The notes under the pieces are model-generated. The model worked only from the letters and a program-made list of their open reading frames with translations. It had not been told where the DNA came from and made no database searches. The translations under genes and the position numbers were made by a program. Of a DNA stretch of 64,000 nucleotides, positions 1,451 through 56,850 are shown in pieces (position 1 is the stretch's first letter; each line of letters begins with the position of its first letter). The stretch spans positions 160,001-224,000 of the forward strand of contig CBDANF010000003.1 in NCBI GenBank assembly GCA_965197475.1. Reading direction: 5' to 3'. Origin of the DNA: Candidatus Poribacteria bacterium. Lineage in GTDB: Bacteria > Poribacteria > WGA-4E > WGA-3G.

Positions 1451-2488
1451 TTACACTTTATGCGGTTGGTAAGTTTTCTTTAGGAAATCTTCCAACTCCT
1501 CAAATGTATCAAAAATCTTATCACATAAGTTTTCAAAGAAGATACTCCGCGTCTCGTTGTAAACAGCATACACAGGTTTATTATGGCGACTGGCGTAGTT
1601 CATTTCGCTGAGAACACCGGGCGATAATTTGTCAGTAGGATAGAGCACAACGACAAAATCACTTTGGTGAACAAACTGGTAATCCCGCGAAATGGTTCGC
1701 GTTTTTATCTGCTCAATTACGTCATCGTCCAATTCACTCATCGTTTCAGGCACATTCAACACCTCATCATCACTCTCTGCTTTTGAGAAGGTAACGAGTG
1801 CCATATCCTTAATCGTCAGTGGATCGAAGACAATAAAAGAATGACGGAGTTTTGCGCCAAGTTCACGAATTTTCTCAATTTCCTTTGGGGTATCTCTTAG
1901 AAGCGTAATCGGGTAACTGAGGTAAAATTTCGGTTTGTCTGAAAAGAGCAGTTCATAGAAATTCGCAAGTTCGTGTTGCCGTGCAACAGTGTAGTGCGGT
2001 TTTTCTGTAAGGTGCGCGAGTTGTCTGGTGAGGAATTCTTCTTCGTCCAGCCAAACATTAAGTGCTGCTTTTTTGATGCCCGCCCATTGAACGCTTTTCT
2101 CCATCCGTTCGTAGATGTCTGCGATATTGTCAACCACGTTGATATACATATCCGGTGGAAGAATTTCAATGTCTTTAAAAGAAAACCCTTCAAGGAGGCT
2201 TCCACGCCATCGAAAGCACGCGTGCAACCCGATGACAGCGTGTTCATACGCTGCGGCATCTCTTGCGATTTCGTAGAAAGCGGTGCGCCGCGCTAACGAT
2301 AAGACCGCCGGATCCGAATCGAGAACCTTCTCTGTGAAATGGACACGCGATTCCGCAGCAACACGGTGCATATAATCACCAACATTGAAAAAGCCGATGT
2401 TCAGTTCTCTTTGTACGCAAAGTGCTTCAAAATCTGCGATTAACTGCTTGCGTCCAGAACAACTGATGCCGGTACAGAAAATATTCAT
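1451..2488 (-). CDS. P-loop NMP-kinase-like domain (archaeal adenylate-kinase-like) fused to a nucleoside 2-deoxyribosyltransferase-like domain
   Basis: N-terminal IFCTGISCSGRK P-loop; C-terminal FYLSYP...RDYQFVHQSDFVV...SPGVLSEMNYASRHNKPVY. Confidence 0.55.
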   Translation of the reverse strand: MNIFCTGISCSGRKQLIADFEALCVQRELNIGFFNVGDYMHRVAAESRVHFTEKVLDSDPAVLSLARRTAFYEIARDAAAYEHAVIGLHACFRWRGSLLEGFSFKDIEILPPDMYINVVDNIADIYERMEKSVQWAGIKKAALNVWLDEEEFLTRQLAHLTEKPHYTVARQHELANFYELLFSDKPKFYLSYPITLLRDTPKEIEKIRELGAKLRHSFIVFDPLTIKDMALVTFSKAESDDEVLNVPETMSELDDDVIEQIKTRTISRDYQFVHQSDFVVVLYPTDKLSPGVLSEMNYASRHNKPVYAVYNETRSIFFENLCDKIFDTFEELEDFLKKTYQPHKV

Positions 2489-2636
2489 TGTTTCGTAACC
2501 TTTACTTATTCTGAAACTCCGCTTATATACTATGGAGTATATCACGATTGCTGTGTGAATTCAAGGAATTTGTGTATCAAAACGATTTGCGATTTGGACT
2601 TGATGTACGCTATAATTATCTAAAGGCAAGAATATA

Positions 2637-2918
2637 GTGAACATTCGCTTTTACAACAATCCAGAAACTGGATTGCCTCATATCTATGATCATGATGTCA
2701 ACAAGGATGAGGTAGAAGATGTTCTACTGAATCCTGGTGAAAATAGAGCGGGACGTGGACGATCAAGGGTTGTCATCGGTCAAACACAAGCGGGACGCTA
2801 CTTGCGAGTTGTCTATGTACAAGACCCGCAGCCCAACAGTGTTTTTGTGGTTACAGCTTACGAATTGACAGGAAAACCTTTAAAGGCATACCGAAGACGA
2901 AGGAGAAACAGAGGATGA
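2637..2918 (+). CDS. DUF4258/BrnT-like putative toxin
   Basis: HIYDHDVNKDEVEDVL...GQTQAGRYLRVVY...VVTAY; stop overlaps next start; TATAAT at 2611. Confidence 0.65.
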   Translation: MNIRFYNNPETGLPHIYDHDVNKDEVEDVLLNPGENRAGRGRSRVVIGQTQAGRYLRVVYVQDPQPNSVFVVTAYELTGKPLKAYRRRRRNRG

Positions 2919-3136
2919 CGAAGAATAAATTTCCGCCTGGGTGGGATGAAGCGCGCGTACAAAGTGTCATTGTACATTACGAACAACAAACAGAGGATGA
3001 AGCTGTCGCTGAAGATGAGGCTGCATTTCAGGATGAGGCCAGCACATTGATGGCGATTCCTACAGAATTGGTACCCGCCGTGCTTGAACTGATTGACAAA
3101 CACATTGCTGTGAAACAACAAGAAATAAAAAATTGA
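2915..3136 (+). CDS. Small acidic putative antitoxin
   Basis: FPPGWDEARVQSVIVHYEQQTEDEAVAEDEAA; ATGA overlap with the upstream toxin-like gene. Confidence 0.6.
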   Translation: MTKNKFPPGWDEARVQSVIVHYEQQTEDEAVAEDEAAFQDEASTLMAIPTELVPAVLELIDKHIAVKQQEIKN

Positions 3137-3249
3137 AAATTAAATGCGATATCTGCGATATATTTTTGAGACAACTGTTTGTCAAAACGCGGGGTTAAAC
3201 TTTTATTCATTGTTATTTTTATAGCAGTAGCAGTTTGGTACTGTGAGTT

Positions 3250-4047
3250 TTACTGAGCTTCCAAGATTGCAGATTTGAGATCTTCATCCCCCGCTTTCTC
3301 TGCTAAGTCTAATGCTGACTGGATATCTTGATTTCCTTTTTTAGTATCACCGAGCAAATGTTTAGCGAGTCCTCGCCCGTAATAAGCCCTTGCATAATCA
3401 GGTTTCAAGCGGATAGCCTCGTCAAAATCAGCGATAGCGTCTTCGGTATATTCTAAAAATAGCTTAGCGAACCCCCTTTCGTTGTGAGTTTGAGCATCAT
3501 CAGGTTTTAGATGGATAGCGGTGTCAAAATCAGAGATGGCAGCTTCAGCATGTTTTAGACGGAATTTCGCAATGCCTCGGTTGAAGTAGGCTTTATGAGC
3601 ATTAGGGGCTAAGCGAATAGCGATGTCAAAGTCAGAGATGGCATCAAAATATTGTTCCAATCTATTTTTGGACATACCTCGGGCCAAGTAAGACTCTGCA
3701 GCGTTCGGTTGAATCTTAATAGTCTTATCATAGTCAACGATGGCAGCTTCAGCATGTCCCAGTTTATCTTTTGCAACCCCTCGGTTGAAGTAAGCGTCTG
3801 CAGATTTCGGGTTTAGACTGATAACTTTATCAAAGTCGGATATAGCTTCAAAGTGTTGTCCCAGGTTGCCATTCGAAATACCACGGTTAAAATAGACATC
3901 TTCATACTCCGGATTTTGGTTGATAGCTTTATCATACTCTAAAATAGCAGACTGATAATCCTCTTGATTGTAAAACTCATTACCTTTGTAAAAGTGAGTC
4001 TTGGCAGATGTAATTTCATTGATTGAGGCGTTAGTGTTTTCCATCAT
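3250..4047 (-). CDS. Tetratricopeptide repeat protein
   Basis: About 7 34-aa repeats of AYFNRG...AI.DFD.AI.L.P. Confidence 0.9.
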   Translation of the reverse strand: MMENTNASINEITSAKTHFYKGNEFYNQEDYQSAILEYDKAINQNPEYEDVYFNRGISNGNLGQHFEAISDFDKVISLNPKSADAYFNRGVAKDKLGHAEAAIVDYDKTIKIQPNAAESYLARGMSKNRLEQYFDAISDFDIAIRLAPNAHKAYFNRGIAKFRLKHAEAAISDFDTAIHLKPDDAQTHNERGFAKLFLEYTEDAIADFDEAIRLKPDYARAYYGRGLAKHLLGDTKKGNQDIQSALDLAEKAGDEDLKSAILEAQ

Positions 4048-4574
4048 GCCGCATCCTTTGCTTTCTGATAACCGGGGAGTATACTATCTTTTAAATTAAG
4101 CTGACTCTCGTTGGATAAATGTGATCGGGGACTTTTGTCACTTGTCTCACTGTTTCTGTTAATCCATTGCGGAAACGCTTGAATGAGGATATAAAGCAGG
4201 ATTGCTACCACTATAGGGGCAATAATAGAGCTCAGAATCACATGTTGCACTTTAGCAGTTCCCTTGGTCCTTTCCTCAAGCACAGCAACTCTTGTGTTGA
4301 GATCTACTACATTTTTGCTAAGGTTCGCCACATTCTCGCTAAGTTTCTCCAGATTTTTGTTAAGTTCCTCTACGTTTTTGTTGAGTTTCTCTACATTTTT
4401 GTTTAAATCTACCAAATTTATTTTTTCGGTAACCGTTATGACTTGCGAGTCTGGTTGTACTGGCTCGGCTAATGCCCCCGATGTAAGGAAGAAGATAACC
4501 AGAATTACTAAAATTCCCCAAAGAGCACCCTGTACATTTAGCATTGTAAATCTCCTAAACTTTGATTTGACCAT
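4044..4574 (-). CDS. Membrane protein with heptad coiled-coil repeats
   Basis: Hydrophobic N-terminal and internal segments; KNVEKLN KNVEELN KNLEKLS ENVANLS KNVVDLN encoded by 21-bp repeats at about 4301-4413. Confidence 0.65.
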   Translation of the reverse strand: MVKSKFRRFTMLNVQGALWGILVILVIFFLTSGALAEPVQPDSQVITVTEKINLVDLNKNVEKLNKNVEELNKNLEKLSENVANLSKNVVDLNTRVAVLEERTKGTAKVQHVILSSIIAPIVVAILLYILIQAFPQWINRNSETSDKSPRSHLSNESQLNLKDSILPGYQKAKDAA

Positions 4575-4663
4575 ACGAAAATAAGCATACGCCGTATTCA
4601 GTTAATAGGTTATATAATTGTAGCATATCATTCAAGAAAAAAACAGAAAAAGTTGAAGAGTCG

Positions 4664-7600
4664 TCACTTCTCTGGTAAACCGTTAATTATCTTCACCGTC
4701 TCAAGGCTAACGGTAATAACACGCGCGATTAAGTCCACAATATACTGCGGTTCCTCCTCACGATTCGGGTCATTCCGAATTTTACTCCGTGCGTCTACCG
4801 TGACACAATACTGATCAATTATCCACTCCAATGCAGACCGATTGCCTAACTTATATTGGAATACATCGGCAGGAATATTTTCCAGCGTTAAGAAACTGTT
4901 GTAACGAATTTGTGATTTGTCTTTGGACAAAGCCATTTTCTCAACGCGCCAGTTTAGTGGCATTTTTGGAGTTTCCTTAAGTGTTAACCCTTCGTATTTT
5001 GGGACAGTCTCATAGTTGACATGGAGATCCGCTAACTGCTTGCCAGCCTCCGCGAACACCCAAAAGTTTTCAGCAAAAGGGATACGAGGGAAGCTGCGCT
5101 TGAGGTCTTCCTTATACTTTTCGCGATAATTGGGGTGGTGCAAGATGCCGTAGTTATAATAAAAAATATCCCATTTTGTAATGCTTTCGTCTTCGTAGTG
5201 GTTTTGAAATGCCACTAATGCCCAGTCGGTAATGTTTTCGCGTCTGTTTGAGCCATCTTCATTATAGATGAAGAAAGGAAAACATTGATTCGGCGATCCA
5301 TAACCGCCTGTTACTACAAGATTAGGAATGCAGTTTGTGACAAGACAAGTAAAAGGTTTCTCTGGTGTCACATTGACACAGATCACTTGATTTTCCGTTT
5401 CTGCTTCACGGGTTGGAAAGATAGAGGGAAACAAGGATACTATATCAGTCATTATTCGGTCAAAATAGAGATTTGATTTAGTAAACGGACGGTAGAGGGA
5501 ATTCCTTGTCTTGTGGTCAACATATTCAGCAATTTTTTCTTGCTTCAACTTTCTTTTTAAGTCGCGGCTCCACTTTATTTTTGTATCATCGTATAAAACA
5601 AAATCATTTACTTTGGGTTCTGGGACATTTCCACGTTTCCATTCAACGACTTCACGTTTCCAACGATCCAACTCTGCTGTGTAAGTTTTTATCGTTCGTT
5701 GCACATTATTATGCAGAGAATCTTGATTGAAGTTGTAAACCCAGGCATCTCTATTGGTTGACACACCGAGACTGAATTTCCTGAAAATCACACCGTTCAC
5801 GACCGGGCCTTTTATTTTCTTTGCTGCTTTAGTTCCCACCGGAATAAGATCTTCAAAATCTTCTTGGAGTCCTTTAGTGAGCCATGTGTGGCGTGTGTTA
5901 GGTTGAATCTTTTGCCATTTGACATTGCTGGCATTTTGATGTTTGCTTAAGAAGTCAAACGTTTGTGCCTTGCTCTGTAATTCTGTTTCATTGTTGTAAA
6001 AAATACATGGAGTGTCAATAGGTTCTCCCGTTTTCAGGAGCAGCGCGATGCTTACACCGATTTTGATGTCAAACACGTTAGAGTCGACAGGCTGCCCCTT
6101 AAGAATATTTCCTCCTAAATTAAACAGATACAACGCATTGAATTCTTTCGCGAGATGTTTTCGCATCCCATCAAATGCTATTCCATCAATAAAAGTGTTG
6201 TTTGTCACAAACGCAACAATACCGCAGTCACCAATTCGTTTTGATGCCCAGCTAAACGCTCTGACATACGGGTCATATACGTTATATATCAGTTGTGCAT
6301 TGGAATCTTTCACATACGTATCCTTAATCTGTTTGTCCAATGCTTTTTTGTATTCACGATTTTTGTTATTGTCGTTTTCGCTTTCTTGTCGAGCATTGTA
6401 GGGTGGATTACCAATAACGACAAACATGTCCTCTGCTTTTTGTTTGTTAACCCGTTTTGTGTTTTCTTCAGAAAGAAGTGACATCTGTGCTTGGTCAAAC
6501 AATTCAAAAGTATCGGCAAAGACTATTCCCTTAAAGGGTAGGTATTTCCCCGTGGATTGCCAGAACTCTTGCTCAATGTTTAAATTGGCAATGTAGTAAG
6601 GCATTAACAGAACTTCGTTGCAATGTAATTCGCGCTGGTATTTATTCTCTAATGCTGTTGTGCGTATGTCCTGCATCAGTCGGACAATAAAATTACCGGT
6701 ACCAACAAACGGATCAATGATATGAACCCCTGTATCTGAAAGTGATCGACTAAACTTATCTTGTAGGAGATGTTCAACGCTGTTCACCATGAAATCGACA
6801 ATCGGTTGTGGCGTGTAGACAATGCCGTGTGTATCTGCTACCTTAACACAGAAACCTTGAAAAAATCGCTCATAGACGGTGTTAAGGTAGTGTTGTTTTT
6901 CTGAGAAGTCTTTACAACGGGTTGCCGCTTGCTCAATAGCAATGTAGAAAGGGTCCAGAGGTTCAAGAAATTTATCACGACTTACCGCTTGTTGCATGAG
7001 TACTGCACTGACCTTTTCAATCTCAACGGCAATGATATTGCGGCTTGCAAAATCGGACATGTTAAAGACTTTGCGGAAGATACGTTCAGTGAGGATATGC
7101 TGAATGAGCATCTCTTCAACGGCAGCTTGTGAAAGATCGGGATTGATTGCGTTACGACAGGTTTGGTAGAAATCGGCAAATGCTGTCTTGAACGCTGTAT
7201 TGGTTTCGTGCTGCTGCTCAATAAGTTTTTTCAACTTGTCTGCAAGTGCCGGAATCCGATCTCGGAATTTATCAACTGCATCATACCAATAGCTAAAAGC
7301 GGTATCGGAATATGAGAAAAGATATTGAAGTGCTTCAACAAGGTTTTTGGAGTCGGTAATGTCTGTGTTTAGTACTTCCTGTTCGTCCTGAAACAAGATG
7401 GCACGCTCGGGGGTTTGAAACAAAATATTGTCAAACGGATAACCCTTGTCACGTTTCTCCTGAATTGCTTTCGGGAGATCGTCATCTATATCCTTTGCCT
7501 CCCAGTATGCTATCGGGAGTCCGTAATTCATAATTATCGCGCCATCAATAAAGATACGTTTTCCTTCTTTGGTACGCATTGGGTATTGTGGGGCAAAGGT

Positions 7601-7765
7601 TGCTTTCACCTTTTTTGCACAAACATCAAGTAAGATAGCAAAGGGGTTGCTCACAGCACCTTCGTGGGTGAGGTCATAGTTTTCGTATTGTTGCAGTGCC
7701 TTGTAGTAGTCTTTTATAGGCTTGTGTGTGTATTTAAGATTTAGTTTTTCCATAAGGTTTTCCAT
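4664..7765 (-). CDS. Single-polypeptide restriction-modification enzyme (nuclease + N6-adenine MTase + type ISP-like C-terminal specificity domain)
   Basis: IDG...YWEAKD nuclease-like motif, GIVYTP, DPFVGTG, VIGNPPY, GVSTNRDAWVY, YRPF, LGNRSALEWIIDQY. Confidence 0.85.
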   Translation of the reverse strand: MENLMEKLNLKYTHKPIKDYYKALQQYENYDLTHEGAVSNPFAILLDVCAKKVKATFAPQYPMRTKEGKRIFIDGAIIMNYGLPIAYWEAKDIDDDLPKAIQEKRDKGYPFDNILFQTPERAILFQDEQEVLNTDITDSKNLVEALQYLFSYSDTAFSYWYDAVDKFRDRIPALADKLKKLIEQQHETNTAFKTAFADFYQTCRNAINPDLSQAAVEEMLIQHILTERIFRKVFNMSDFASRNIIAVEIEKVSAVLMQQAVSRDKFLEPLDPFYIAIEQAATRCKDFSEKQHYLNTVYERFFQGFCVKVADTHGIVYTPQPIVDFMVNSVEHLLQDKFSRSLSDTGVHIIDPFVGTGNFIVRLMQDIRTTALENKYQRELHCNEVLLMPYYIANLNIEQEFWQSTGKYLPFKGIVFADTFELFDQAQMSLLSEENTKRVNKQKAEDMFVVIGNPPYNARQESENDNNKNREYKKALDKQIKDTYVKDSNAQLIYNVYDPYVRAFSWASKRIGDCGIVAFVTNNTFIDGIAFDGMRKHLAKEFNALYLFNLGGNILKGQPVDSNVFDIKIGVSIALLLKTGEPIDTPCIFYNNETELQSKAQTFDFLSKHQNASNVKWQKIQPNTRHTWLTKGLQEDFEDLIPVGTKAAKKIKGPVVNGVIFRKFSLGVSTNRDAWVYNFNQDSLHNNVQRTIKTYTAELDRWKREVVEWKRGNVPEPKVNDFVLYDDTKIKWSRDLKRKLKQEKIAEYVDHKTRNSLYRPFTKSNLYFDRIMTDIVSLFPSIFPTREAETENQVICVNVTPEKPFTCLVTNCIPNLVVTGGYGSPNQCFPFFIYNEDGSNRRENITDWALVAFQNHYEDESITKWDIFYYNYGILHHPNYREKYKEDLKRSFPRIPFAENFWVFAEAGKQLADLHVNYETVPKYEGLTLKETPKMPLNWRVEKMALSKDKSQIRYNSFLTLENIPADVFQYKLGNRSALEWIIDQYCVTVDARSKIRNDPNREEEPQYIVDLIARVITVSLETVKIINGLPEK

Positions 7766-7882
7766 TAGTGCTAACTTGTTCCTGATGGATTACAAGAGTC
7801 AACGATCCGAAAAAACAGATATACTTTTTAAATTGATACCTATGATTATAGAACAGTTAAACATTCACCATGTAAACGTATA

Positions 7883-7956
7883 TAATTACTATTCCCTATC
7901 TGCTGCTAACGATTTGAGTTTTGCGAGTGCCTCCTGCTCCTCTGTTTGCCACGGAC
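7883..7956 (-). repeat. Leftover 3' tail of the phyH-like gene (copy of 10633-10706)
   Basis: 66/74 nt identical; encodes PWQTEEQEALAKLKSLAADRE* vs native PWQTEEQEALAKLKSLTADRE*. Confidence 0.95.
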
Positions 7957-7993
7957 AGTGCGCGGGTTTTTCTCATGTTCCTTTTGCATGTAA

Positions 7994-8374
7994 CTAATTT
8001 TCTGCTATCTGTGTCGATGTGTTTTGTGTCTCTAACACATCGGTGTACGCTTCAAGGTTTAGGTTTTCAGGGTCTATCGGTTGGATCGAAAGTTGATAGC
8101 CAAGCACTTTAAGGACAACTGTAAGAACATCAATCAAAGGTGTCCCTTCATTAGATAGGACTTTCGCAAGCACTTGTGGGTCCATATCTGTCTGCTTTGC
8201 CAGTTCAGAAACACCACCCTGCGCTTCAACAACGGTATGGAGAGATCTTAGAACTACTGGCGAATCCTCAAAAATTTGATAGTCTTCAAGGATAGCTTGG
8301 AGATAGTTAATTGCGCTTTCTCTGTCAGCAAGTTTTTCAATAAGGTACTCGCGCCATATTCCCATTTTTCTCAC
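7994..8374 (-). CDS. Addiction module antidote (HTH antitoxin)
   Basis: YLQAILED...[19 protein letters not shown]...LSNEGTP; GTG start overlaps the toxin stop. Confidence 0.8.
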
Positions 8375-8513
8375 TGATGTGTCTCCTTGTATTCTTGCCA
8401 ATATATTTTTGCCCGTTCAATATCACGCGTTTGTGATGACTTGTCTCCACCACATAATAAAAGAACGATTGTGTTCCCTACTTGTCCAAAATAGATTCGA
8501 TAACCTGCTCCAA
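8371..8513 (-). pseudogene. RelE/HigB-type addiction module toxin, 3' half only
   Basis: [39 protein letters not shown]; 5' half replaced by a phyH fragment. Confidence 0.85.
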
Positions 8514-8557
8514 TCCGAGACATCCACATCATCAGTGACCAAGCCATGCACAAGTGG
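8514..8557 (-). repeat. Internal 44-bp fragment of the phyH-like gene (copy of 10859-10902)
   Basis: 38/44 identical with all 6 differences at third codon positions; encodes [14 protein letters not shown]. Confidence 0.92.
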
Positions 8558-8713
8558 AGGACATGGGAGGTCCGCGCAAGCGCGGGAAGAAGTCTTCCTA
8601 AATGAGATATAACATATTAAAAATGGTATAAGCATTATTCTTACGCCAATTCATTTTACAATCAAGGTTCGGTTGGATTTATTGTATTGCATTGTTAGTC
8701 CTTTTATTGCATT

Positions 8714-9184
8714 TTAAAATGTCCATTTTTCTCTTTCCATGAATCCCTGCAAGTTAGTAAATGGAACTCCAAAATGGTCGCAAACATTTGGTATTTTAGG
8801 AGCGTTAGGTTTCTCTTTTTCTTCAGTGACAACACAGCCGTTTATTGTTTTGGCTAAGGCAATGATGAATGGATCGGCACACGGGTATCCAGCTAAGCGA
8901 TTTTTCTCATTTACTAAGTTTTGGAAATGTGGTACCAAGAAAATTTGCCTAACAAAGTGCGTTTCTGCAGCACTCGGTTTCACGAAAATGCTTTTATGCC
9001 GTTTTATCCAATCAGATAAATGAGGACGCCGTGTGTACCGTTGTAGTTCCCTTTCAACTTCCTTTACAGAGATAATCTTTCCATCTTTCACTGTTTGATC
9101 GAAATATTGCCAAAAAGTTGGGAATTGGTTCGGGTAATAATTACCAAGTACACTGAAACTATTGGTGTCAAATACGTAGATCAT
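8714..9184 (-). CDS. DUF4411-family PIN-like protein
   Basis: YVFDTNSF...FPTFW...ADPFIIALA...VVTEE...KIPNVC. Confidence 0.85.
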   Translation of the reverse strand: MIYVFDTNSFSVLGNYYPNQFPTFWQYFDQTVKDGKIISVKEVERELQRYTRRPHLSDWIKRHKSIFVKPSAAETHFVRQIFLVPHFQNLVNEKNRLAGYPCADPFIIALAKTINGCVVTEEKEKPNAPKIPNVCDHFGVPFTNLQGFMEREKWTF

Positions 9185-10341
9185 TTGCGAACTGCCTTTC
9201 TGAGCAGGCAGTCTTCAAGCCCAGATAAATTTTTAACCTTGACGTTTAGATGCTCTGAAAGTTGTTCAATCGTGCATTGCCCCTGGTAAAACTTGCTAAA
9301 GGCAAGTTCCATATATCTCGGACCTAAATATGCTGTTTGCGTATTGTAATAGCCTCCTCCACCTGGAGATTCATCTCCAGTTCTTTGTTCTCTATGTGAT
9401 TCATATAATGCTGTCCATCCCTTTATTTTCTGCAGATAAATTTCATTCGTAAGAATCCCCTTATTGACTAACTTTAACAAAATGACTGGACGACTAACTT
9501 TATAAATACTTGCCAATTTTTCTACAGTATCATCATCGTAATCAGGAAACTTAAGGTGAGATTCTAAGTCATCAGATGGCACAAGAAATTCAGCAGCAAA
9601 TTGGTTACAGAATGTCTCAATTTTTTCACCTGTAGGGTTAATGTCACGGGTAATCCCGTTTTTTCCAAGTAACAGGTGTGCTAATTCATGGAACAAAGTA
9701 AAAATTTGTCGGACTGCTGGTCGACTATTATTGAGATAGATTACTGGAAACACATCATGTACAAGGCAAAATCCATCAACAGAATTATCTTTAAATGCAT
9801 CTTTAAAAATGAAAATACCTTTTTCCTGAATACATTCACGCCAATTTTCCAATGCTTCTGTGGGATTTTTCCAATTTGTTTGTTGGTCGACACTGATGTT
9901 CAGATACACTCGAGTCTGTTTTGCTAATTCCAAAGGTGAATCATTAAGCTGGGCGTGAAAGTCTCTAAAAATTTGATTTTCAGATGGATTTTTACCCAGG
10001 CTGAGTTCCATCAAGGAAAGTTGTCGTGTATAAGCTTGTCGCAATAGAATATGGATTCTCGGTTCTAATTGATCAACGTCAGAACTTCGCAGTGCAAGAT
10101 TCTCAGCAATATTTTCTTCTTCCGGAGGTTCAGGAAAAAAGAAAATAGCTACAGGACGCTTGTACTTATCAGCTAAAGTTTCAAGTTGAGCATAAGTCAG
10201 TGCCAGATTGCCAGACTCACATTCATTGATGAATGAAATATCTTTACTTAAAGTTTTGGCAGCCGCTTCCAAGGAATAACCGGAACGTTCGCGTGCCCAT
10301 TTGAGGATTTCAGGATTAATCCCATCAACATACTCAGCCAT
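9181..10341 (-). CDS. XRE HTH + ImmA/IrrE metallopeptidase fusion
   Basis: INPEILKWARERSG HTH; FTLFHELAH HExxH; E..CNQFAAEFLVP. Confidence 0.9.
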   Translation of the reverse strand: MAEYVDGINPEILKWARERSGYSLEAAAKTLSKDISFINECESGNLALTYAQLETLADKYKRPVAIFFFPEPPEEENIAENLALRSSDVDQLEPRIHILLRQAYTRQLSLMELSLGKNPSENQIFRDFHAQLNDSPLELAKQTRVYLNISVDQQTNWKNPTEALENWRECIQEKGIFIFKDAFKDNSVDGFCLVHDVFPVIYLNNSRPAVRQIFTLFHELAHLLLGKNGITRDINPTGEKIETFCNQFAAEFLVPSDDLESHLKFPDYDDDTVEKLASIYKVSRPVILLKLVNKGILTNEIYLQKIKGWTALYESHREQRTGDESPGGGGYYNTQTAYLGPRYMELAFSKFYQGQCTIEQLSEHLNVKVKNLSGLEDCLLRKAVRK

Positions 10342-10638
10342 GATAGTAGCCTCAATATGTAAGCAATTTTTTAAATGCGATCAAGAGAAATAGACTATAC
10401 TTACATAAATTGAAATAAACTTCAGTTAAATATATTATAACCTAATATATAGTTTTAATCAATTGTTTGGTACAGGGTTTTTATTGCCCACCTCCGGTTG
10501 CAAACCGAGTTTCATTGATTTTCCTTATCCTGCGATACCTGCGGATGGATTGTCCTTTCGTTTCGCGGTGCCGTGTCTGTAATCTTGGACCTCTTTTTTT
10601 GTGAACGGCACACGGCGTGTGCCTACTACTTTTAATTA

Positions 10639-11442
10639 CTATTCCCTATCTGCTGTTAACGATTTAAGTTTAGCCAATGCCTCCTGTTCCTCCGTTTGCC
10701 AGGGACGTTCTGCCGGGTTATCCAATTTCTGATGCGGACCGCTGAAGACGAGGATATATGCCCTACGCGCTTGTGCAGTGCTGTTAGGAGCAGAATAGTG
10801 TAAAGTCCGACAGTGATGGAACGTAGCACCGCCTGCTGGTATCGGACAAGCAACCGCTTCCGAGACATCCACATCATCGGTCACCAAACCGTGTACAAGC
10901 GGCTCGTCGTTGATATGACGATGCCAACGCACGTCACCTTTATGAGATTTCGGAATAAATTGCATACATCCGCTCTCAATTGTCGCTTTGTCAAGCGGAA
11001 GCCATACACTCAAACTATGCGGCAAGACTGTCGGATTCCAGTATGCCTCGTCCTGATGCCACGGCGTTTCGTTGCCGTAGTGCGCAGGCTTCAAAATCAT
11101 GTGGCCACCACCACCAACCTTTTCCATTTCTACACCGAGCAGTTTCGCAGCGAGTCTTTGTGCATTTTGGAAATAGATAGATTCGCGGAGTTCTGGAAAT
11201 TGCCCTTCTGGACCTAGTACTTGCGGTAACGTTTCTTTTCCGCTGTGCGCACGGGGACCAGCAAGATCAAAGTAGCGTCCCTGCTCTTCTCCTGTCCGTT
11301 CAGTGAAGAGTTCATCGTAAATGCCTTTGAGCCATTCGATCTCTTCATCGGTTGTGATGCGTGGAATACTCAGATATCCGTTCTCTTGAAAAAAGGCAAC
11401 CTGATCGTCGGTTACGTCAACGTGAAAGTTATTGGTTTTCAT
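10639..11442 (-). CDS. Phytanoyl-CoA dioxygenase (PhyH) family Fe/2OG oxygenase
   Basis: FFQENGY, TPWHQD, SVWLPLD..TIESGCMQFIPKSH, TLHYSAPN, RRA. Confidence 0.92.
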   Translation of the reverse strand: MKTNNFHVDVTDDQVAFFQENGYLSIPRITTDEEIEWLKGIYDELFTERTGEEQGRYFDLAGPRAHSGKETLPQVLGPEGQFPELRESIYFQNAQRLAAKLLGVEMEKVGGGGHMILKPAHYGNETPWHQDEAYWNPTVLPHSLSVWLPLDKATIESGCMQFIPKSHKGDVRWHRHINDEPLVHGLVTDDVDVSEAVACPIPAGGATFHHCRTLHYSAPNSTAQARRAYILVFSGPHQKLDNPAERPWQTEEQEALAKLKSLTADRE

Positions 11443-11446
11443 AAAA

Positions 11447-13270
11447 TCATCGAATTAAAATATCAAAAGGTAAGGCTGTGACGACTCGCTCGTTTTCAAA
11501 TAGGGTTAACCATGTTATTATCCGATGCCATTGCGTACTAAACATAGGAATTGCTGGATGCCGCTGTGCTAACTGCAAAGGTAACGGCACTGAAATTCCC
11601 GCATCCTCTTCAAGCATGCGCTCTAAGAATTGCTCAAAAAAGGGTTTCTGTTCTGGTAGCACGATGATGTCAAATCTATCTTCATCTGTAAATCCCGCTT
11701 TTTCCTTAGCGATAGACAACGCAGTATCAAGTCCTCCGATTTCATCAACGAGACCGAGTTCTTTTGCCTGTTTTCCGGTCCAGACTCGCCCCTGTGCGAC
11801 TGCATCAATTTCATCGTAAGTCTTATTCCTACCCGATGCTGCCTTATTGACAAAATTTTCATAGACCGTCTTCATCATCTTTTCAACACGTTCGCGTTCT
11901 GTCGGCGAAAAACCTCCATAGTCTGAATAGAGCGTGGCGTTTTGGCCATGCGCGATAATCTCTTTTGTCAAACCGATTTTGTTATAGAGTCCCTTCAGAT
12001 TGAGTTTTCCACCGTAGACCCCTATTGAACCAGTAAGCGTTGCGGGTTGTGCAACGATTGTTCCGGCTGCCATTGATATATAATAACCACCAGAGGCAGC
12101 CATATTTGCCATAGATACGATGACAGGTTTTTCACGTTGTGTCAGCATCACCTCTCGCCAAATCATGTCAGACGCGATCGCAGAGCCACCCGGACTATCC
12201 ACGCGTAACACGACCGCCTGAATAGCATCGTCAGAACGCGCTTTTTGAAACGCTTTCTTTAACGTTTTCGGTGTAATCATAGACATTGTGGCAAAAGGCG
12301 AGTCAAAATCGGGTAAAATGGGACCGCTTGCATAGATGAGCGCGATCTGATTATCTGCGGGACGAGCCTTTGCACGCTGTGGTGGATTAAACATACTGAA
12401 CAACTGCATCATTCCCGCAAAACTATTCATATCCGGTATTTTTCGTTTCTTTTCACCGTCTTGTGTGACAACCTGTACCTCTCCCTCTGGTGCCGCTTTG
12501 ATCGCATCCAAGAGTTCATCGTAGTATTGTAATACATCAACGAGCTTTGATTCATGTGCCTCCTTCGCAGTAAAGGGACCACGATCTATTAACTCGGCTG
12601 CAATCTCAGAGGTAATCTCCTCTCTACCCTCGGCAATTTTCTCCAACATTTGGGCATACAAGTCATCAAGCAAACCTGTCATTGACTCACGGAAGGCATC
12701 TGACATGCTGTCGCGCGTGTAAGGTTCAATACCTGATTTGAATTTTCCCATTGCGAGCATATCAGCCTCAATATCCAGTTTTTCCAAAAATCCTTTGTAG
12801 AAAAGAATTTCTGCGCGTAAACCGGTTAGATTGAGACTTCCGGTGGGCATCAGAACGATTTGATCCATCGCAGCAGCGAGGAGGTATTGGGCATTCCCCC
12901 CACTTTCAAGATAGCCGATCATCTCTTTTTCTGCATCGCGAAGTTCACCTAATTTATTTCGGACTTCTTGAAGGCTTGCCCACCCTATACCGACATTCCC
13001 GATTTTGAAGATAATAGCATCCACTTCATCATCATTTTTGAGCGCGTCCAGTTTCTTGAAAAGTCCACGCAATGTTTTCGTTGAAGCGGTGCCAAAAAAA
13101 CTTATCTCTTTAGTATCGGAAAAGGTGCCACTTAATGTGAATTCAACGTATTTTTTGATAGGTGGTGCTGCTTCTTCTTCGGATTGTTCCTGAGCGGACA
13201 GTGGTAGGACGAACAGGAGGACCATAAGCAGAAATGTTGCTGTCTGCCAGAAGTTTTGTAATGGTTTCAT
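11447..13270 (-). CDS. sppA: Signal peptide peptidase SppA (67K type)
   Basis: LRVDSPGGS, AASGGYY, TGSIGV, AQGRVWTG. Confidence 0.92.
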   Translation of the reverse strand: MKPLQNFWQTATFLLMVLLFVLPLSAQEQSEEEAAPPIKKYVEFTLSGTFSDTKEISFFGTASTKTLRGLFKKLDALKNDDEVDAIIFKIGNVGIGWASLQEVRNKLGELRDAEKEMIGYLESGGNAQYLLAAAMDQIVLMPTGSLNLTGLRAEILFYKGFLEKLDIEADMLAMGKFKSGIEPYTRDSMSDAFRESMTGLLDDLYAQMLEKIAEGREEITSEIAAELIDRGPFTAKEAHESKLVDVLQYYDELLDAIKAAPEGEVQVVTQDGEKKRKIPDMNSFAGMMQLFSMFNPPQRAKARPADNQIALIYASGPILPDFDSPFATMSMITPKTLKKAFQKARSDDAIQAVVLRVDSPGGSAIASDMIWREVMLTQREKPVIVSMANMAASGGYYISMAAGTIVAQPATLTGSIGVYGGKLNLKGLYNKIGLTKEIIAHGQNATLYSDYGGFSPTERERVEKMMKTVYENFVNKAASGRNKTYDEIDAVAQGRVWTGKQAKELGLVDEIGGLDTALSIAKEKAGFTDEDRFDIIVLPEQKPFFEQFLERMLEEDAGISVPLPLQLAQRHPAIPMFSTQWHRIITWLTLFENERVVTALPFDILIR

Positions 13271-13429: not shown

Positions 13430-14737
13430 TTAAACAGTTGACTTTCTCAAAATGAGCAAAAATTCTGACTTCATCCCATCAGGGTTCTTATTCTTCCGCA
13501 CACCGAACAGTTGCCGCGTTTTAATCCTATCTTCATAAACTTTTTCAAACCTGAAACCGCGTTCCGTCCAGTATTCTGTCAATATTCGCCACAGTTCAAC
13601 CGTTATACCATCAATACGTGGATTACCAACGAAAATACAGGCGGCTGCGTTCGGTTTCAATCGATTCATCGAATTTTCAAGTGCGTTTAGCGTATGGCAA
13701 AAATAGGAGTCAAGCCGCTTATGCAAGTCTGTACGAGTGAGTTTTTCCCTGACTTTATCCAATGTTTCGGTGTGAATTGTCCTATCTGCTTTCCGATACG
13801 GGATTTCAAGACGTGATAATGCCTTTATTTCCTCATCAGTGTGTCCTAACCAAAAGAGGTCCATCTTTGTAGAGCGGATATATTCCTGTGCTTGGAGATA
13901 GGGAGGCGATGTGATTAATGCGTCACATTCGCGTGGCACAGTAATGTAAGAGGAATCAACACCTCCCTGAAACTCAACCTGATTTTGATGATGTTGCGTG
14001 TGCATCACAAAGTCGTTAAGGCTTCTTAACGTTTTCAAAGAATGGTCGTACACTATCTCTATTAACTGCTCCTTCCAATTCTCGCTGAGCAATTCTTCTA
14101 TCGCCGCTAATTTACGCTTGGATCTGGCTAATTTTGGCGTTCTATGCTCGGTGTAAGAGAAACGTTTGCTTACCTTCAGCAGTGCCGATTTGATAATACC
14201 GGAATAGATGTCTTGTTCTATGCTGTAGATATAACCCCAGTATTGCGATAAAAACTCCAAAATTTCAGGTGCGTACCAGTATTGGACATTAGACCAAGCG
14301 GGGATAAAACGGTGCTTTTTACTTTCTTTCATGCTGTCAAGCAATTTACATAAATGGTCTTTACACAACCGTTCTTTTCCGCGGTAAACCTTCAGCGGCA
14401 TGATGTGATTCAAAAGTAGGTTGAGATCGAGTAGCACAGCATTGCGTTTGCATAGGGACGCTTCAACGCCCACAGTTCCTGAACCTGCGAACGGATCCAC
14501 AATCCAATCCCCTTCCTTTGTGTAGGTGTTGATTGCATATCTGACGACTTGGGGGATAAATTTCGCAGGATACGATACGATGGCGTGTGTCAAGTAGCCG
14601 GTATCGGAAATTTCTGGCACTAAATCCCGGAACGACACTAATTCCACCGTGTCGGATGTCGCATTCTCTTTCGGGAATCCAAATTCAGTATCTATGGGAA
14701 AAAGCGTGAATTGTTCTTCCAGATTAAGGTTTTTCAT
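13430..14737 (-). CDS. Orphan DNA methyltransferase (N4-C/N6-A class)
   Basis: YPAKFIPQ, DPFAGSGT, ITSPPY. Confidence 0.85.
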   Translation of the reverse strand: MKNLNLEEQFTLFPIDTEFGFPKENATSDTVELVSFRDLVPEISDTGYLTHAIVSYPAKFIPQVVRYAINTYTKEGDWIVDPFAGSGTVGVEASLCKRNAVLLDLNLLLNHIMPLKVYRGKERLCKDHLCKLLDSMKESKKHRFIPAWSNVQYWYAPEILEFLSQYWGYIYSIEQDIYSGIIKSALLKVSKRFSYTEHRTPKLARSKRKLAAIEELLSENWKEQLIEIVYDHSLKTLRSLNDFVMHTQHHQNQVEFQGGVDSSYITVPRECDALITSPPYLQAQEYIRSTKMDLFWLGHTDEEIKALSRLEIPYRKADRTIHTETLDKVREKLTRTDLHKRLDSYFCHTLNALENSMNRLKPNAAACIFVGNPRIDGITVELWRILTEYWTERGFRFEKVYEDRIKTRQLFGVRKNKNPDGMKSEFLLILRKSTV

Positions 14738-51857: not shown

Positions 51858-52688
51858 ATGGAGCAGCGAGAAATGGTTACGGCATTACGGACAGACTTTT
51901 CGGTTCGGCAGATATGTGAGACACTCGGTTTCAACCGAAGCAACCTCTATTATCACTCCAAGCAGGCCCCGTGTGAAGCGGGCCTCCAGGATGAAATAGA
52001 GACGTTATCTTTGCTATATCCAACATACGGATATAGGCGTCCCACACAGTTGTTGGTGCGTAACGGATACACCATCGGGTATAAACGTGTTGCCCGATTG
52101 ATGAAGTCCGCCAACCTCTCGGTTTCTGTCAAGCGTGTCTGTCAAACCACGACATCCGTTGCGGGTGTGCGTCCCTGGAGCAATCGCCTTGAAAACCTTG
52201 ATGTCTCCCGATGTAATCAGGTCTGGGTGGGCGATATTACCTACGTCCGCCTCAAAGGACACTTTATCTATGTTTGTCTGCTCATGGATGTCTTCACTCG
52301 CATGATCAGAGGGTGGCATATCAGTCAACACTTGACGCAATCTCTGACGTTGAAACCCTTGGAGACAGCATTATGTCAAAGTGTCCCAGAGATCCATCAT
52401 TCTGATCAAGGCGTTCAATATCTTTCAAATGCGTCCATCTCACTGCTTAGGCATCATGGGATTGAGATTTCAGTCGCCCGGAGAGGGTGTCCTTGGGAGA
52501 ACGGATATGCTGAAAGACTTATCCGCACGCTCAAGGAAGAAGAAGTTCATCTCAATGACTATGAGGACATCCACGAAGCAAGAACCCGCATTGGGCATTT
52601 TATTACACAAGTGTATAATCACAAACGCCCTCACTCTGCGTTAGGGTATTTGACACCTGTGGAATTTGAGCAAAAAAACTTGTCTTAA
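51858..52688 (+). CDS. IS3 transposase OrfB (rve integrase core)
   Basis: YGYRR, WVGDITY, HHSDQGVQY, ENGYAER, YNHKRPHSALGYLTP. Confidence 0.93.
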   Translation: MEQREMVTALRTDFSVRQICETLGFNRSNLYYHSKQAPCEAGLQDEIETLSLLYPTYGYRRPTQLLVRNGYTIGYKRVARLMKSANLSVSVKRVCQTTTSVAGVRPWSNRLENLDVSRCNQVWVGDITYVRLKGHFIYVCLLMDVFTRMIRGWHISQHLTQSLTLKPLETALCQSVPEIHHSDQGVQYLSNASISLLRHHGIEISVARRGCPWENGYAERLIRTLKEEEVHLNDYEDIHEARTRIGHFITQVYNHKRPHSALGYLTPVEFEQKNLS

Positions 52689-55543: not shown

Positions 55544-56850
55544 CTATGCCTGCGGGGGTGTTAGTAGCATTACGGCGATGTCTTCTGGGATTTAACGTTA
55601 TGTTTCTGCTCAAAGTCGGCAATGCTATCATAATGCCCAAAGAATTCAATTATTATACCTTCTTTTGCATCCTTTGTCTCCACGAAGTCCGATCTAAATT
55701 TTTCCCATTCGTGAAGGTTTAGCCAAATCCAACACCGATTACGATATGCATTTGCCTATTCAGCATTTATTTTTATTGCTTTGTCATAGTTTTTGATTGC
55801 AAGTTCAACTTTTCCTTTTTTAAGATAAGCTAAACCAAGGTTATTATGTGCCTCAGCTAAATTAGGATTAAATTGTATCGCTTTCTTAAAATATTTAATC
55901 GCACGATCATACTGACCTTTTTTGCCGTAACTTTTACCGAGATTTGTGTAGGTTTTAGCATCATTGGGCTTGAGTCGTATTGCTTTATTCAAATCCTTGA
56001 TGGCACAGTTTAACCTGCCCTTATTGTTGTAAGCATTTCCACGATTAGTATAAGCTTTGGCTAAATCCGGATCCAGTTGTATCGCTTTAGTATAGTTCTT
56101 GAAAGCATGGCCAACATGACTTTTCATGTCATAAGCAACGCCGCGATTGTAATATACCTCAGCATCGTTGGGGTTGAGTTGTATTGATCTGTTAAAATCT
56201 TTGATAGCAAGATCATGTTCACCCTTTACACCGTAAGCAACACCGCGATAATTATAAGCTCCAGCATTTTTCGGGTTCAGTTCAATTGCACGGGAATAAG
56301 CTGCAATTGCTCTATCAAATTGCTTTAGCATCATCATGAAATTACCCTTTTCTACTATCCAATAAGACAATATCTTAATTTCTTCCGATGCTATAGTAGG
56401 TGAAGGTTGTAGCTGAGATTGCATTTCTTCAACGACTTTTCGAATACCATCTACTACACTTTTCCAACCTTTACTTTCTGGCTGCCATTCGTTAATTGGC
56501 TTGACTCCTTCAGGAAGTGCCTGAAATTCGCTGAGTTGGTGGTTTTCCCAATCGCAATGCTCAAGGATAATCGGAATCACTCTTATATTTGGATTTAACG
56601 CAGCAGTCAATTCCTTATTGCAATTTTCAGAAGCAAGACTATACGGACAAGTAAGGTAGAGCAGAATGTCCGAATCGGCAAGGTTGGTGAAAATTGCATC
56701 CCGCCATTTGTCTCCGGGTAAAATTTCGTTGTCGTGCCAGACATCAATTAAACCATTTTGCTTCATTACAGCAAGGTAAGTAATTAATTTGTCCTTTGCT
56801 TCGGTATTTTTATGCGCGTAGGTAATGAAAACCTTTAATCCTTTACTCAT
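55544..56850 (-). CDS. TIR-domain + TPR protein; premature TAG at 55756 cuts off the C-terminal tail
   Basis: KVFITYAHKN..VWHD.EILPG..W..SLASENCNKE..VIPIIL; TPRs; reading continues ANAYRNRCWIWLNLHEWEK after the stop. Confidence 0.85.

Follow-up and report, generated by a model that had tools for sequence, protein, structure and literature searches.

Chromosomal integron arrays consist of small co-oriented cassettes, many of them toxin–antitoxin (TA) pairs, with a repeat after each. In tandem accretion, integrative elements and integrase-less cis-mobilizable remnants line up at the 3′ ends of genes, as in the ssrA-linked island arrays of Dehalococcoides. C-terminal displacement arrays at Rhs, contact-dependent inhibition (CDI), and type VI secretion system (T6SS) effector-immunity loci are described as orphaned 3′ ends and orphan immunity genes behind a constant gene; homologous together with homology-facilitated illegitimate recombination, with new modules placed beside the constant gene, has been proposed for them (Kirchberger et al. 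2017, PMC5361080). Defense islands commonly figure as variable stretches flanked by core genes; accounts of them report defense-rich content between syntenic core genes, rapid turnover, and often no mobile-element gene (PMC10250203, PMC10121019, PMC5635113), and how cassettes enter such regions without a mobile-element gene is little addressed. Here, a stretch of 64,000 nucleotides from a Candidatus Poribacteria bacterium (contig CBDANF010000003.1, positions 160,001–224,000; referred to as the window) was analyzed. In this window, the interval between phyH, encoding a PhyH-family iron/2-oxoglutarate (Fe/2OG) dioxygenase, and a gene with an AAA_17 and a nucleoside deoxyribosyltransferase-like (NDT) part is filled with defense and TA genes, among which orphaned pieces of phyH are interspersed. 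The interval is probably a Poribacteria recombination hotspot, in which small defense and TA cassettes are stacked, permuted, and eroded via phyH-anchored recombination. In the literature searched, neither this hotspot nor defense cassettes bounded by gene ends were described for Poribacteria.

The locus works like a C-terminal displacement array, its closest parallel, but is not a member of this group because its anchor phyH is no polymorphic toxin. As in the arrays described by Kirchberger et al., co-oriented orphan 3′ ends matching alleles of other strains are interleaved with small protective genes, which are immunity genes there and antitoxins here. Unlike those arrays, the anchor is a metabolic-type dioxygenase gene rather than a toxin with a variable C-terminal domain, and the displaced phyH end lacks a variable toxin domain, so that no selection for displacement is obvious; the cargo consists of unrelated defense and TA cassettes, and the downstream core gene has left orphaned 5′ ends in the same manner. 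With variable, defense-enriched content between syntenic core genes, the locus is ordinary among core-gene hotspots as portrayed in the accounts cited above; it differs from those portrayed there in that its cassettes are bounded by repeated ends of the flanking genes and that a sub-kilobase cassette moves across species together with its scar. As in tandem accretion, direct repeats of the target 3′ end bound the units and the target gene is intact. Unlike in tandem accretion, no integrase gene was found in 35 islands (those of 34 occupied related loci and the window; five of them extend beyond the 10 kb compared), repeat length is cassette-specific, and units are as small as ∼0.9 kb. The locus is also unlike an integron and is not classed as one, as no intI gene was found in the 35 islands or the window, and what repeats is part of a coding sequence, not an attC hairpin.

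The interval between phyH and the AAA_17/NDT gene

A genome collection with one genome per species was searched with the PhyH protein as query. From 163 confirmed stretches the best 80 loci (amino acid identity 83–93%; cited below by L numbers) were used, with 10 kb of DNA compared on each side; the record titles name Candidatus or uncultured Poribacteria in 77 cases and "uncultured bacterium" in three. The backbone order in the 80 loci is sppA-phyH-[variable gap]-AAA_17/NDT gene-rimK. The left-hand backbone gene sppA (window positions 11447–13270, minus strand; signal peptide peptidase, TIGR00705, E = 1.6e-103) lies directly upstream of phyH in 80/80 loci (tblastn), and the right-hand AAA_17/NDT gene (1451–2545, minus strand) gave a tblastn match in 67. 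The anchor phyH (10639–11442, minus strand; PF05721, E = 9.9e-34) is intact in the window, and its product ends with LTADRE. The gap between phyH and the AAA_17/NDT gene was measurable in 66 loci (13 of the other 14 have no AAA_17/NDT gene in the DNA examined, and one has it inverted); it is ≤300 bp in 44, 301 to 1000 bp in five, and >1000 bp in 17, and amounts to 8093 bp in the window. The G+C content is 0.36 to 0.43 in the window gap versus 0.43 to 0.50 for phyH and sppA. The variability of the phyH-downstream neighborhood expected in a preliminary description of this DNA was borne out across the 80 loci, which refutes an invariant arrangement.

Reading the minus strand, the gap contains an XRE/ImmA gene and a DUF4411 gene, a 44-bp phyH piece, a toxin remnant and an antitoxin gene, a phyH tail, a restriction–modification (RM) gene, and genes for a coiled-coil and a tetratricopeptide repeat (TPR) protein, followed by a convergent TA-like pair; open reading frame (ORF) and Pfam evidence agree with this order as first described. 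For the cargo of the 35 islands, 236 ORFs of ≥60 amino acids (nested ORFs dropped) were grouped into 127 clusters, and one representative of each was scanned against Pfam. These representatives include restriction and methylation functions (Type ISP/IIL, Type III, GmrSD, methyltransferases), ThsB-like TIR, PDC-S31, PDC-S57, PDC-M63A, and Hypoth_Ymh proteins, two TA-like pairs, and a few insertion sequence (IS) transposases. Neither a tyrosine nor a serine recombinase was detected among the 127 representatives (the islands of L003, L010, L012, L048, and L057 run past the 10 kb covered), and none was found elsewhere in the 64-kb window. An IS3-type rve transposase gene ∼40 kb away (51858–52688, plus strand) is the sole mobile-element gene seen in the window.

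The order of cassettes is permuted between genomes: phyH-c1-tail-TA-tail-RM in L009, phyH-TA-tail-c1-tail-TA-tail, followed by further units, in L004, and phyH-TA-c1-tail-ImmA-DUF4411 in L012. Here, c1 denotes the commonest single-gene cassette of the hotspot, which codes for a protein of 164 to 183 amino acids with an acidic C terminus (L009:11385–11876 and 14 more copies in 13 loci). An 85-bp phyH tail often comes after it, and the window lacks this cassette; its representative had no Pfam, NCBIfam, PADLOC, or PDB match.

The phyH fragments and the cassettes that carry them

Both orphaned phyH pieces reported in the preliminary description were recovered downstream of the intact gene by repeat search and blastn. 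The functional copy of the repeated tail is the 3′ end of phyH with its stop codon and six following nucleotides (10633–10722, minus strand). Positions 7883–7956 align with 10633–10706 over 74 bp with eight mismatches, stop codon and six bases included (blastn E = 1.6e-23), and the piece at 8514–8557 (minus strand), corresponding to gene nucleotides 540 to 584, aligns with 10859–10902 over 44 bp with six mismatches (blastn E = 6e-10). Against other alleles the 74-bp match extends to position 7972 (∼90–97 bp), so that the orphan tail at 7883–7972 (minus strand) comprises the last ∼84 nucleotides of phyH, a stop codon at 7889–7891, and six further nucleotides. The tail and its stop codon thus stand as first described, but the "gene stub" placed in front of them consists mostly of additional phyH homology at greater divergence. 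Read in frame with phyH, the two pieces have 14 mismatches, 13 of them silent; the lone replacement (T→A) turns LTADRE into LAADRE, the C terminus predicted for relatives and indeed the commonest form among them (20/80 loci).

The tail at 7883–7972 forms the end of a TA cassette of ∼0.9 kb. The window holds a remnant of its HI1419-type RelE/ParE toxin gene (8371–8513, minus strand), of which codons 66 to 112 and the stop codon alone remain, and an intact gene for the HI1420-type helix-turn-helix (HTH) antitoxin (7994–8365, minus strand; 123 amino acids from ATG), which is now orphaned. The intact 112-amino acid toxin of L001 (TIGR02683, E = 4.4e-38, 129.6 bits at a cutoff of 62.85; chance-level PDB matches only) matched the window in tblastn with its residues 66 to 112 at 96% identity. 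The antitoxin, 96 to 97% identical to those of L001 and L002 at the amino acid level, scored above the Pfam cutoff of 27 with PF21716 (33.6 bits, E = 3.7e-08) and below the NCBIfam cutoff of 53.7 with TIGR02684 (33.5 bits). With respect to the HI1419/HI1420 pair, the window therefore has the intact antitoxin without an intact toxin. The unit starts just past the phyH stop region within a GTAG-headed hairpin and ends with the ∼90-nucleotide phyH tail; it ends alike in L001, L002, L004 (two copies), L009, L020, and the window, that is, in at least seven copies from six sources. For window positions 8513 to 7889 (625 bp; L001 11045–11669), identity is 97.8% to L001, 97.9% to L002, and 97.0% to L004, whereas the sppA-phyH backbone reaches only 86.3%, 85.9%, and 83.8%, respectively. 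As judged from these alignments, the 74-bp tail belongs to the TA cassette and travels with it between genomes.

The 44-bp piece is continuous with a different cassette. Its first gene (9181–10341, minus strand; PF06114, E = 2e-21, and HTH_31) encodes an XRE-type HTH protein with an M78/ImmA zinc-peptidase domain, a putative RmrA-like antitoxin or sensor, with the motif HELAH (HExxH) at residue 218 and matches to PADLOC RmrA models (to E = 5.6e-24) and to chain A of PDB 9vzy (E = 3.8e-30). The second (8714–9184, minus strand; PF14367, E = 4e-33; chain D of 9vzy, E = 3.8e-18), which overlaps the first by four nucleotides (9181–9184), encodes a DUF4411 PIN-like nuclease, the putative toxin. Homologs of both proteins are thus chains of one solved complex, and the presence of both genes behind phyH, as initially noted, was confirmed by Pfam. 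RosmerTA (RmrA/RmrT) is described as a zinc-peptidase antitoxin with a variable toxin (10.1101/2022.05.11.491447, PMC10440598); the sources on RosmerTA and on three-component TA systems of HTH-DUF955 plus DUF4411 also include PMC5499597, which classes DUF4411.1 as PIN-like and VapC-like. Like RosmerTA, the window pair has an HTH-M78 zinc-peptidase antitoxin gene upstream of a small overlapping toxin gene. Unlike it, the toxin is a PIN-like DUF4411 protein with no match to the PADLOC RmrT models. By homology, the pair is a predicted TA module of the abortive-infection type.

The 3′ flank of this ImmA-DUF4411 cassette (8558–8713, minus strand) could be aligned base for base with L040, where window positions 9108 to 8522 are 91.0% identical to 12572–13156, and the high-identity block of the unit begins ∼25 nucleotides before the phyH stop codon. 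In both genomes the DUF4411 flank joins phyH at nucleotide 540 with an identical junction. Past this junction, the phyH sequence of L040 runs for 272 bp to the gene end, whereas the window switches after 44 bp to toxin codon 66. The 44-bp piece is thus what remains of the 272-bp phyH tail that belongs to the ImmA-DUF4411 cassette. The 5′ truncation of the toxin gene coincides exactly with the end of the 44-bp piece; a single deletion removed the rest of the 540-to-end tail, the spacer, and toxin codons 1 to 65, and it was this deletion, rather than an insertion, that gave rise to the toxin remnant. L018 has the same neighbors (DUF4411, then antitoxin) with a larger loss. The 2756-bp segment from the ImmA gene to the tail had no match in a phage collection, and in a plasmid collection just two cyanobacterial plasmids matched, each over ≤5% of the segment.

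Besides the window, 16 of the 80 loci have additional phyH 3′ fragments, which without exception follow phyH in the same orientation and separate cassettes. Most are 45 to 100 bp long, those of L040 (272 bp) and L039 (313 bp) being longer, and length and start point differ by cassette type (about 45, 59, 85–97, 272, and 313 bp). When compared with 81 functional phyH alleles, the tail at 7883–7972 has one private base in 90 and the 44-bp piece none in 44. Orthologous alleles fit the window fragments more closely (up to 93%) than the resident phyH does, and no phyH paralog was found in the window; the 44-bp piece is 93% identical to the L007 allele and 86% to its own. Both pieces resemble alleles of the L004, L007, and L008 group, and the window's own allele ranks only seventh and 16th of 81 as a match for them. 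The differences arose in functional genes, because 13 of 14 are silent and at most one base per fragment is private. The window fragments are therefore foreign alleles, hardly decayed, and not copies of the resident phyH. Across all loci, the own phyH allele is the best match for just 3/22 fragments, so that concerted evolution of the tails with the phyH of the same genome was rejected as a general explanation; the long fragments of L039 and L040 are 93 to 98% identical to their own phyH.

The window phyH itself is a mosaic, with the first 270 nucleotides nearest to the alleles of L003, L011, and L012 and the remainder nearest to those of L001 and L002. A breakpoint at nucleotide 540, expected if the functional 3′ part had come with the ImmA cassette, was considered and discarded, as the nearest allele shifts near nucleotide 270 instead. 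At the opposite edge of the interval, orphaned 5′ ends of the AAA_17/NDT gene lie inside the islands of eight loci and mirror the phyH tails (L002:16471–16704, L004:16863–17008, L007:17058–17203, L009:16732–16868, and also L011, L015, L017, and L003); none is present in the window. In L039, a chimeric duplicate combines 5′ sequence of sppA with 3′ sequence of phyH. Each cassette thus appears to carry an orphaned phyH 3′ end at its far side or, for some in other genomes, an orphaned AAA_17/NDT 5′ end.

A GTAG-headed hairpin resembling repetitive extragenic palindromes (REP) follows the phyH stop codon (10607–10629, minus strand). Copies exist in 25/81 sources, some of them in unrelated places and on either strand, with a tandem run at L067:16718–16834; the 64-kb window has one copy, with none expected by chance, which was called as a terminator-like hairpin on the plus strand. 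As an explanation of the array, the REP-like hairpin alone is too sparse. Inspection of the tail and the post-stop sequence by eye, with no model run, gave no convincing match to a dif/Xer-like or attC-like site.

Erosion of the TA cassette is not confined to the window. Intact toxin copies number nine (L001, L004b, L006, L008, L009, L012, L019, L020, and L046), and three toxins are broken: by an insert of ∼87 nucleotides in L002, a stop codon in L004a, and the truncation in the window. In the split toxin gene of L002 (L002:10849–11276), the insert has terminal inverted repeats and resembles a miniature transposable element. The antitoxin occurs without a toxin in six loci (L015, L016, L018, L021, L050, and L052), and only degenerate antitoxin remains were found in L035, L053, and L056. 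Loss of the toxin with retention of the antitoxin hence recurs across lineages. Erosion of chromosomal TA modules, in which the toxin is inactivated, the antitoxin persists, and the modules lie in high-turnover spots, has been reported (Belot et al. 2026, PMC13617665). Unlike the erosion described there, toxin loss recurs here in many lineages of one cassette family, and intact antitoxins are kept while the cassette still moves in the population. These orphan antitoxins may serve to neutralize incoming copies of the mobile toxin, an anti-addiction role that the pattern suggests without proving it.

The RM gene and the rest of the stack

The RM gene (4664–7765, minus strand) encodes a protein of 1033 amino acids with the Pfam domains ISP_coupler, N6_Mtase, and Type_ISP_C; in the PADLOC run it was matched by REase_MTase_IIG, just as the XRE/ImmA gene was by RmrA models. 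Its domain order is N-terminal nuclease, connector, N6-adenine methyltransferase, and target recognition domain. Residues 17 to 1031 align with PDB 7lo5_A (1029 amino acids, E = 3.5e-185), which we take to be DrdV, with whose length the 1029 residues agree, and residues 41 to 1029 match PADLOC PDLC03621 (1024 model positions); LlaGI and LlaBIII match residues 192 to 1032 only. Pattern searches located D74-x13-E88-x-K90 and NPPY at residue 453, presumably the nuclease and the N6-adenine methyltransferase motif, respectively. Pfam gave no match to a helicase/translocase (ResIII, Helicase_C) or Mrr domain in this enzyme; a 1601-amino acid protein of L010 does carry helicase/Mrr-type domains. The RM enzyme is assigned to Type IIL rather than Type ISP because of the full-length match to 7lo5, the NPPY and D-x13-ExK motifs, and the absence of a helicase or Mrr domain. 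DrdV is a Type IIL RM enzyme of 1029 amino acids (10.1101/2021.01.06.425610), with which the window enzyme shares full-length homology, the domain order, and the lack of a helicase. By homology, it is predicted to methylate one strand of an asymmetric site and to cut unmodified DNA.

Orthologs of the RM enzyme in relatives are ∼74% identical. L008 and L009 have the orthologous gene intact; in L019 the end of the contig cuts it off, L014 and L015 retain a stub, and the copies of L052 and L056 are broken. In none of the 80 loci does the RM gene follow phyH directly, contrary to the arrangement anticipated in the preliminary description. The promoter placed upstream of the RM gene (TTTACA and TATAAT at a spacing of 17) also failed: the two motifs (7876–7871 and 7850–7845) are 20 nucleotides apart, the promoter scan made no call there, and the promoter reading was discarded since the region contains 24 promoter-like sites versus 22.1 in shuffled sequences. 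Likewise, terminator-like counts in the region showed no excess over shuffles. A Hypoth_Ymh gene lies directly upstream of the DrdV-like gene in L015, L019, and L052; in L009 (12891–12937) just the 3′ portion of the Hypoth_Ymh gene is left, and the window shows unrelated sequence at this place.

The remaining genes of the gap agree with the initial assignment. The coiled-coil protein (4044–4574, minus strand) has heptad repeats, encoded by five 21-nucleotide tandem repeats (4290–4415), and hydrophobic stretches at both ends; tblastn found it in 0/80 loci, and its profile matches were weak and to coiled coils only. The gene for the TPR-repeat protein (3250–4047, minus strand; 265 amino acids, TPR_11, E = 5.8e-40) overlaps the coiled-coil gene by four nucleotides and gave only 26 to 37% tblastn matches, in 7/80 loci. 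The convergent TA-like pair on the plus strand (2637–3136) consists of a DUF4258 gene (2637–2918; PF14076, E = 5.6e-07) and a gene for a small acidic protein (2915–3136). The small acidic ORF is kept in 9/80 loci, whereas the DUF4258 gene was found in 0/80 by tblastn and is intact in the window only; 210 nucleotides (window 2672–2881) are missing from L004, L009, and L015, which keep the small acidic ORF. The loss of DUF4258 is another instance in which a toxin-like gene disappears and its partner persists.

Outside the interval, an N6/N4 DNA methyltransferase gene (13430–14737, minus strand) lies upstream of sppA; its distance to sppA varies by kilobases across the 25 loci having the methyltransferase, which hints at a second variable spot. 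A fusion protein of a TIR domain and TPR repeats is encoded far from the hotspot (55756–56850, minus strand).

Relative ages, route of cassette exchange, and implications

As an age measure, the window was compared with other loci at four-fold degenerate sites. Against L001, L002, and L004, the backbone genes differ at a fraction of 0.29 to 0.47, whereas the antitoxin differs at 1/57, 0/57, and 2/56 sites. For the ImmA and DUF4411 genes, values of 0.13 and 0.10, respectively, were obtained against L040 (0.10–0.22 across orthologs), where the backbone genes reach 0.54 to 0.67. The RM gene gave 0.454 against L008 and 0.433 against L009, within the backbone range of 0.34 to 0.50 for these loci. 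Both small cassettes were accordingly exchanged among lineages long after the lineages split. The RM gene is as old as the backbone and the older occupant of the site, as had been proposed, because its differences are at backbone level (0.43–0.45) and those of the small cassettes (0–0.04 for the antitoxin, 0.10–0.22 for ImmA/DUF4411) are far lower. The claim of at least two insertions behind phyH is upheld as well, these being the XRE/ImmA-DUF4411 and the TA cassette.

The comparison of loci yields the following history. An old DrdV-like Type IIL RM gene resided in the hotspot when the RelE(HI1419)/HI1420 cassette with its ∼90-bp phyH tail arrived by recent horizontal transfer. The RosmerTA-like cassette (XRE-M78 and DUF4411), with a phyH fragment from nucleotide 540, would then have been placed beside phyH, giving the intermediate array ImmA-DUF4411-[phyH 540-to-end]-[stop region]-toxin-antitoxin-[tail]. 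Finally, a deletion of ∼470 bp, as estimated from L040 and L001, left 44 bp of the fragment and the orphan antitoxin. The tails would be scars of donor DNA that was anchored by phyH homology at one end and joined illegitimately at the other (homology-facilitated illegitimate recombination); alternatively, a circularized piece may have integrated by a single crossover. Once present, they could act as portable homology by which a cassette with its tail is copied to other genomes or array positions. With linear DNA, new cassettes would enter most simply beside phyH, and because of this simplest route the ImmA cassette is taken as the newest and the RM gene as the oldest. The route favored here is homologous or illegitimate recombination at the tails. 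General recombination of the flanks fits better than one specific site because of the AAA_17/NDT 5′ orphans, the L039 chimera, and the mosaic phyH.

Several observations weigh against this reading. No circular form, donor, or recipient pair was seen in the loci compared. The ends of the TA cassette are constant across genomes, as a site-specific process would also produce. The blocks of high identity start close to the phyH stop codon and not within the body of the gene, and the homologous arm on this side would therefore be short, ∼90 to 125 bp at ∼90% identity; an arm of this length and identity is marginal for RecA-type recombination. Tails are missing between the cassettes of L008 and between the TA genes and c1 in L006 and L012, and the coiled-coil and TPR genes had no defense annotation in profile scans. 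As to which of the two insertions came first, divergence offers no confirmation, because the TA cassette, which sits further from phyH, has closer relatives than the ImmA cassette.

The constancy of the cassette ends bears directly on an integron-like or att system, in which the phyH tail, perhaps with the GTAG hairpin, would be the site at which a recombinase acting in trans, its gene located at another place in the genome or on a helper element, excises and inserts the small cassettes, in the manner of attC cassettes or of cis-mobilizable remnants of integrative elements. The identical ends of at least seven TA cassettes from six sources, their near-identity across species, the co-oriented and permuted arrangement of cassettes, and the left edge of the TA cassette inside a conserved hairpin would all follow from it. 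We nevertheless regard such a system as unlikely: neither the 35 islands (127 representatives) nor the 64-kb window yielded a tyrosine or serine recombinase, repeat lengths and starts vary with cassette type, and the hairpin is absent from several tails, including that at 7883–7972. Moreover, a second unrelated sequence, the AAA_17/NDT 5′ end, also occurs as internal fragments, which general recombination explains better. Doubtful, though with a little more in its favor, is the broader notion that the phyH tail and the GTAG hairpin are the site of an undescribed cassette-exchange system of sponge symbionts, a "gene-tail integron". If it were true, a trans-acting recombinase or the host machinery would move sub-kilobase cassettes across species and array positions, with the host gene always restored.

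In the preliminary description, the two pieces were seen as halves of one phyH end split by the TA insertion; put more fully, one older phyH 3′ end would have been displaced by a new phyH end together with ImmA-DUF4411 and then split. That the pieces stand in gene order and orientation, differ almost only at silent sites, and both resemble L004/L007/L008 group alleles is what such a history would leave behind. It is improbable all the same, because the TA genes and the 74-bp tail form one block, 97 to 98% identical to L001, L002, and L004, whose blocks have their own tail and, preceded by the phyH stop region, an intact toxin gene. The 44-bp piece is continuous with the DUF4411 flank as in L040, the 74-bp tail moves with the TA genes, and the toxin truncation exactly at the end of the 44-bp piece points to a deletion that fused two units, not to an insertion. 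That the fragments are decayed local duplications of the own phyH, remains of a paralog, or metagenome assembly artifacts is very improbable: local duplication does happen, as the long L039 and L040 fragments indicate, but the silent differences, the near absence of private bases, and the low ranks of the window allele speak against it, and the same structures recur in independent records titled complete chromosomes (L001, L002, L004, L009, and L012).

Under the favored reading of phyH-anchored recombination, the scars of cassette entry are readable at this locus, since the joints are flagged by orphan ends from the genes on either side, and an age order can be supplied for parts of the stack. 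Orphan gene ends would also provide a simple search key for such hotspots elsewhere. A TA cassette of ∼0.9 kb and its scar are almost identical in species whose silent-site differences amount to 30 to 45%, and the locus thereby offers a concrete, testable picture of how cassette traffic may proceed without an integrase in uncultivated sponge symbionts.

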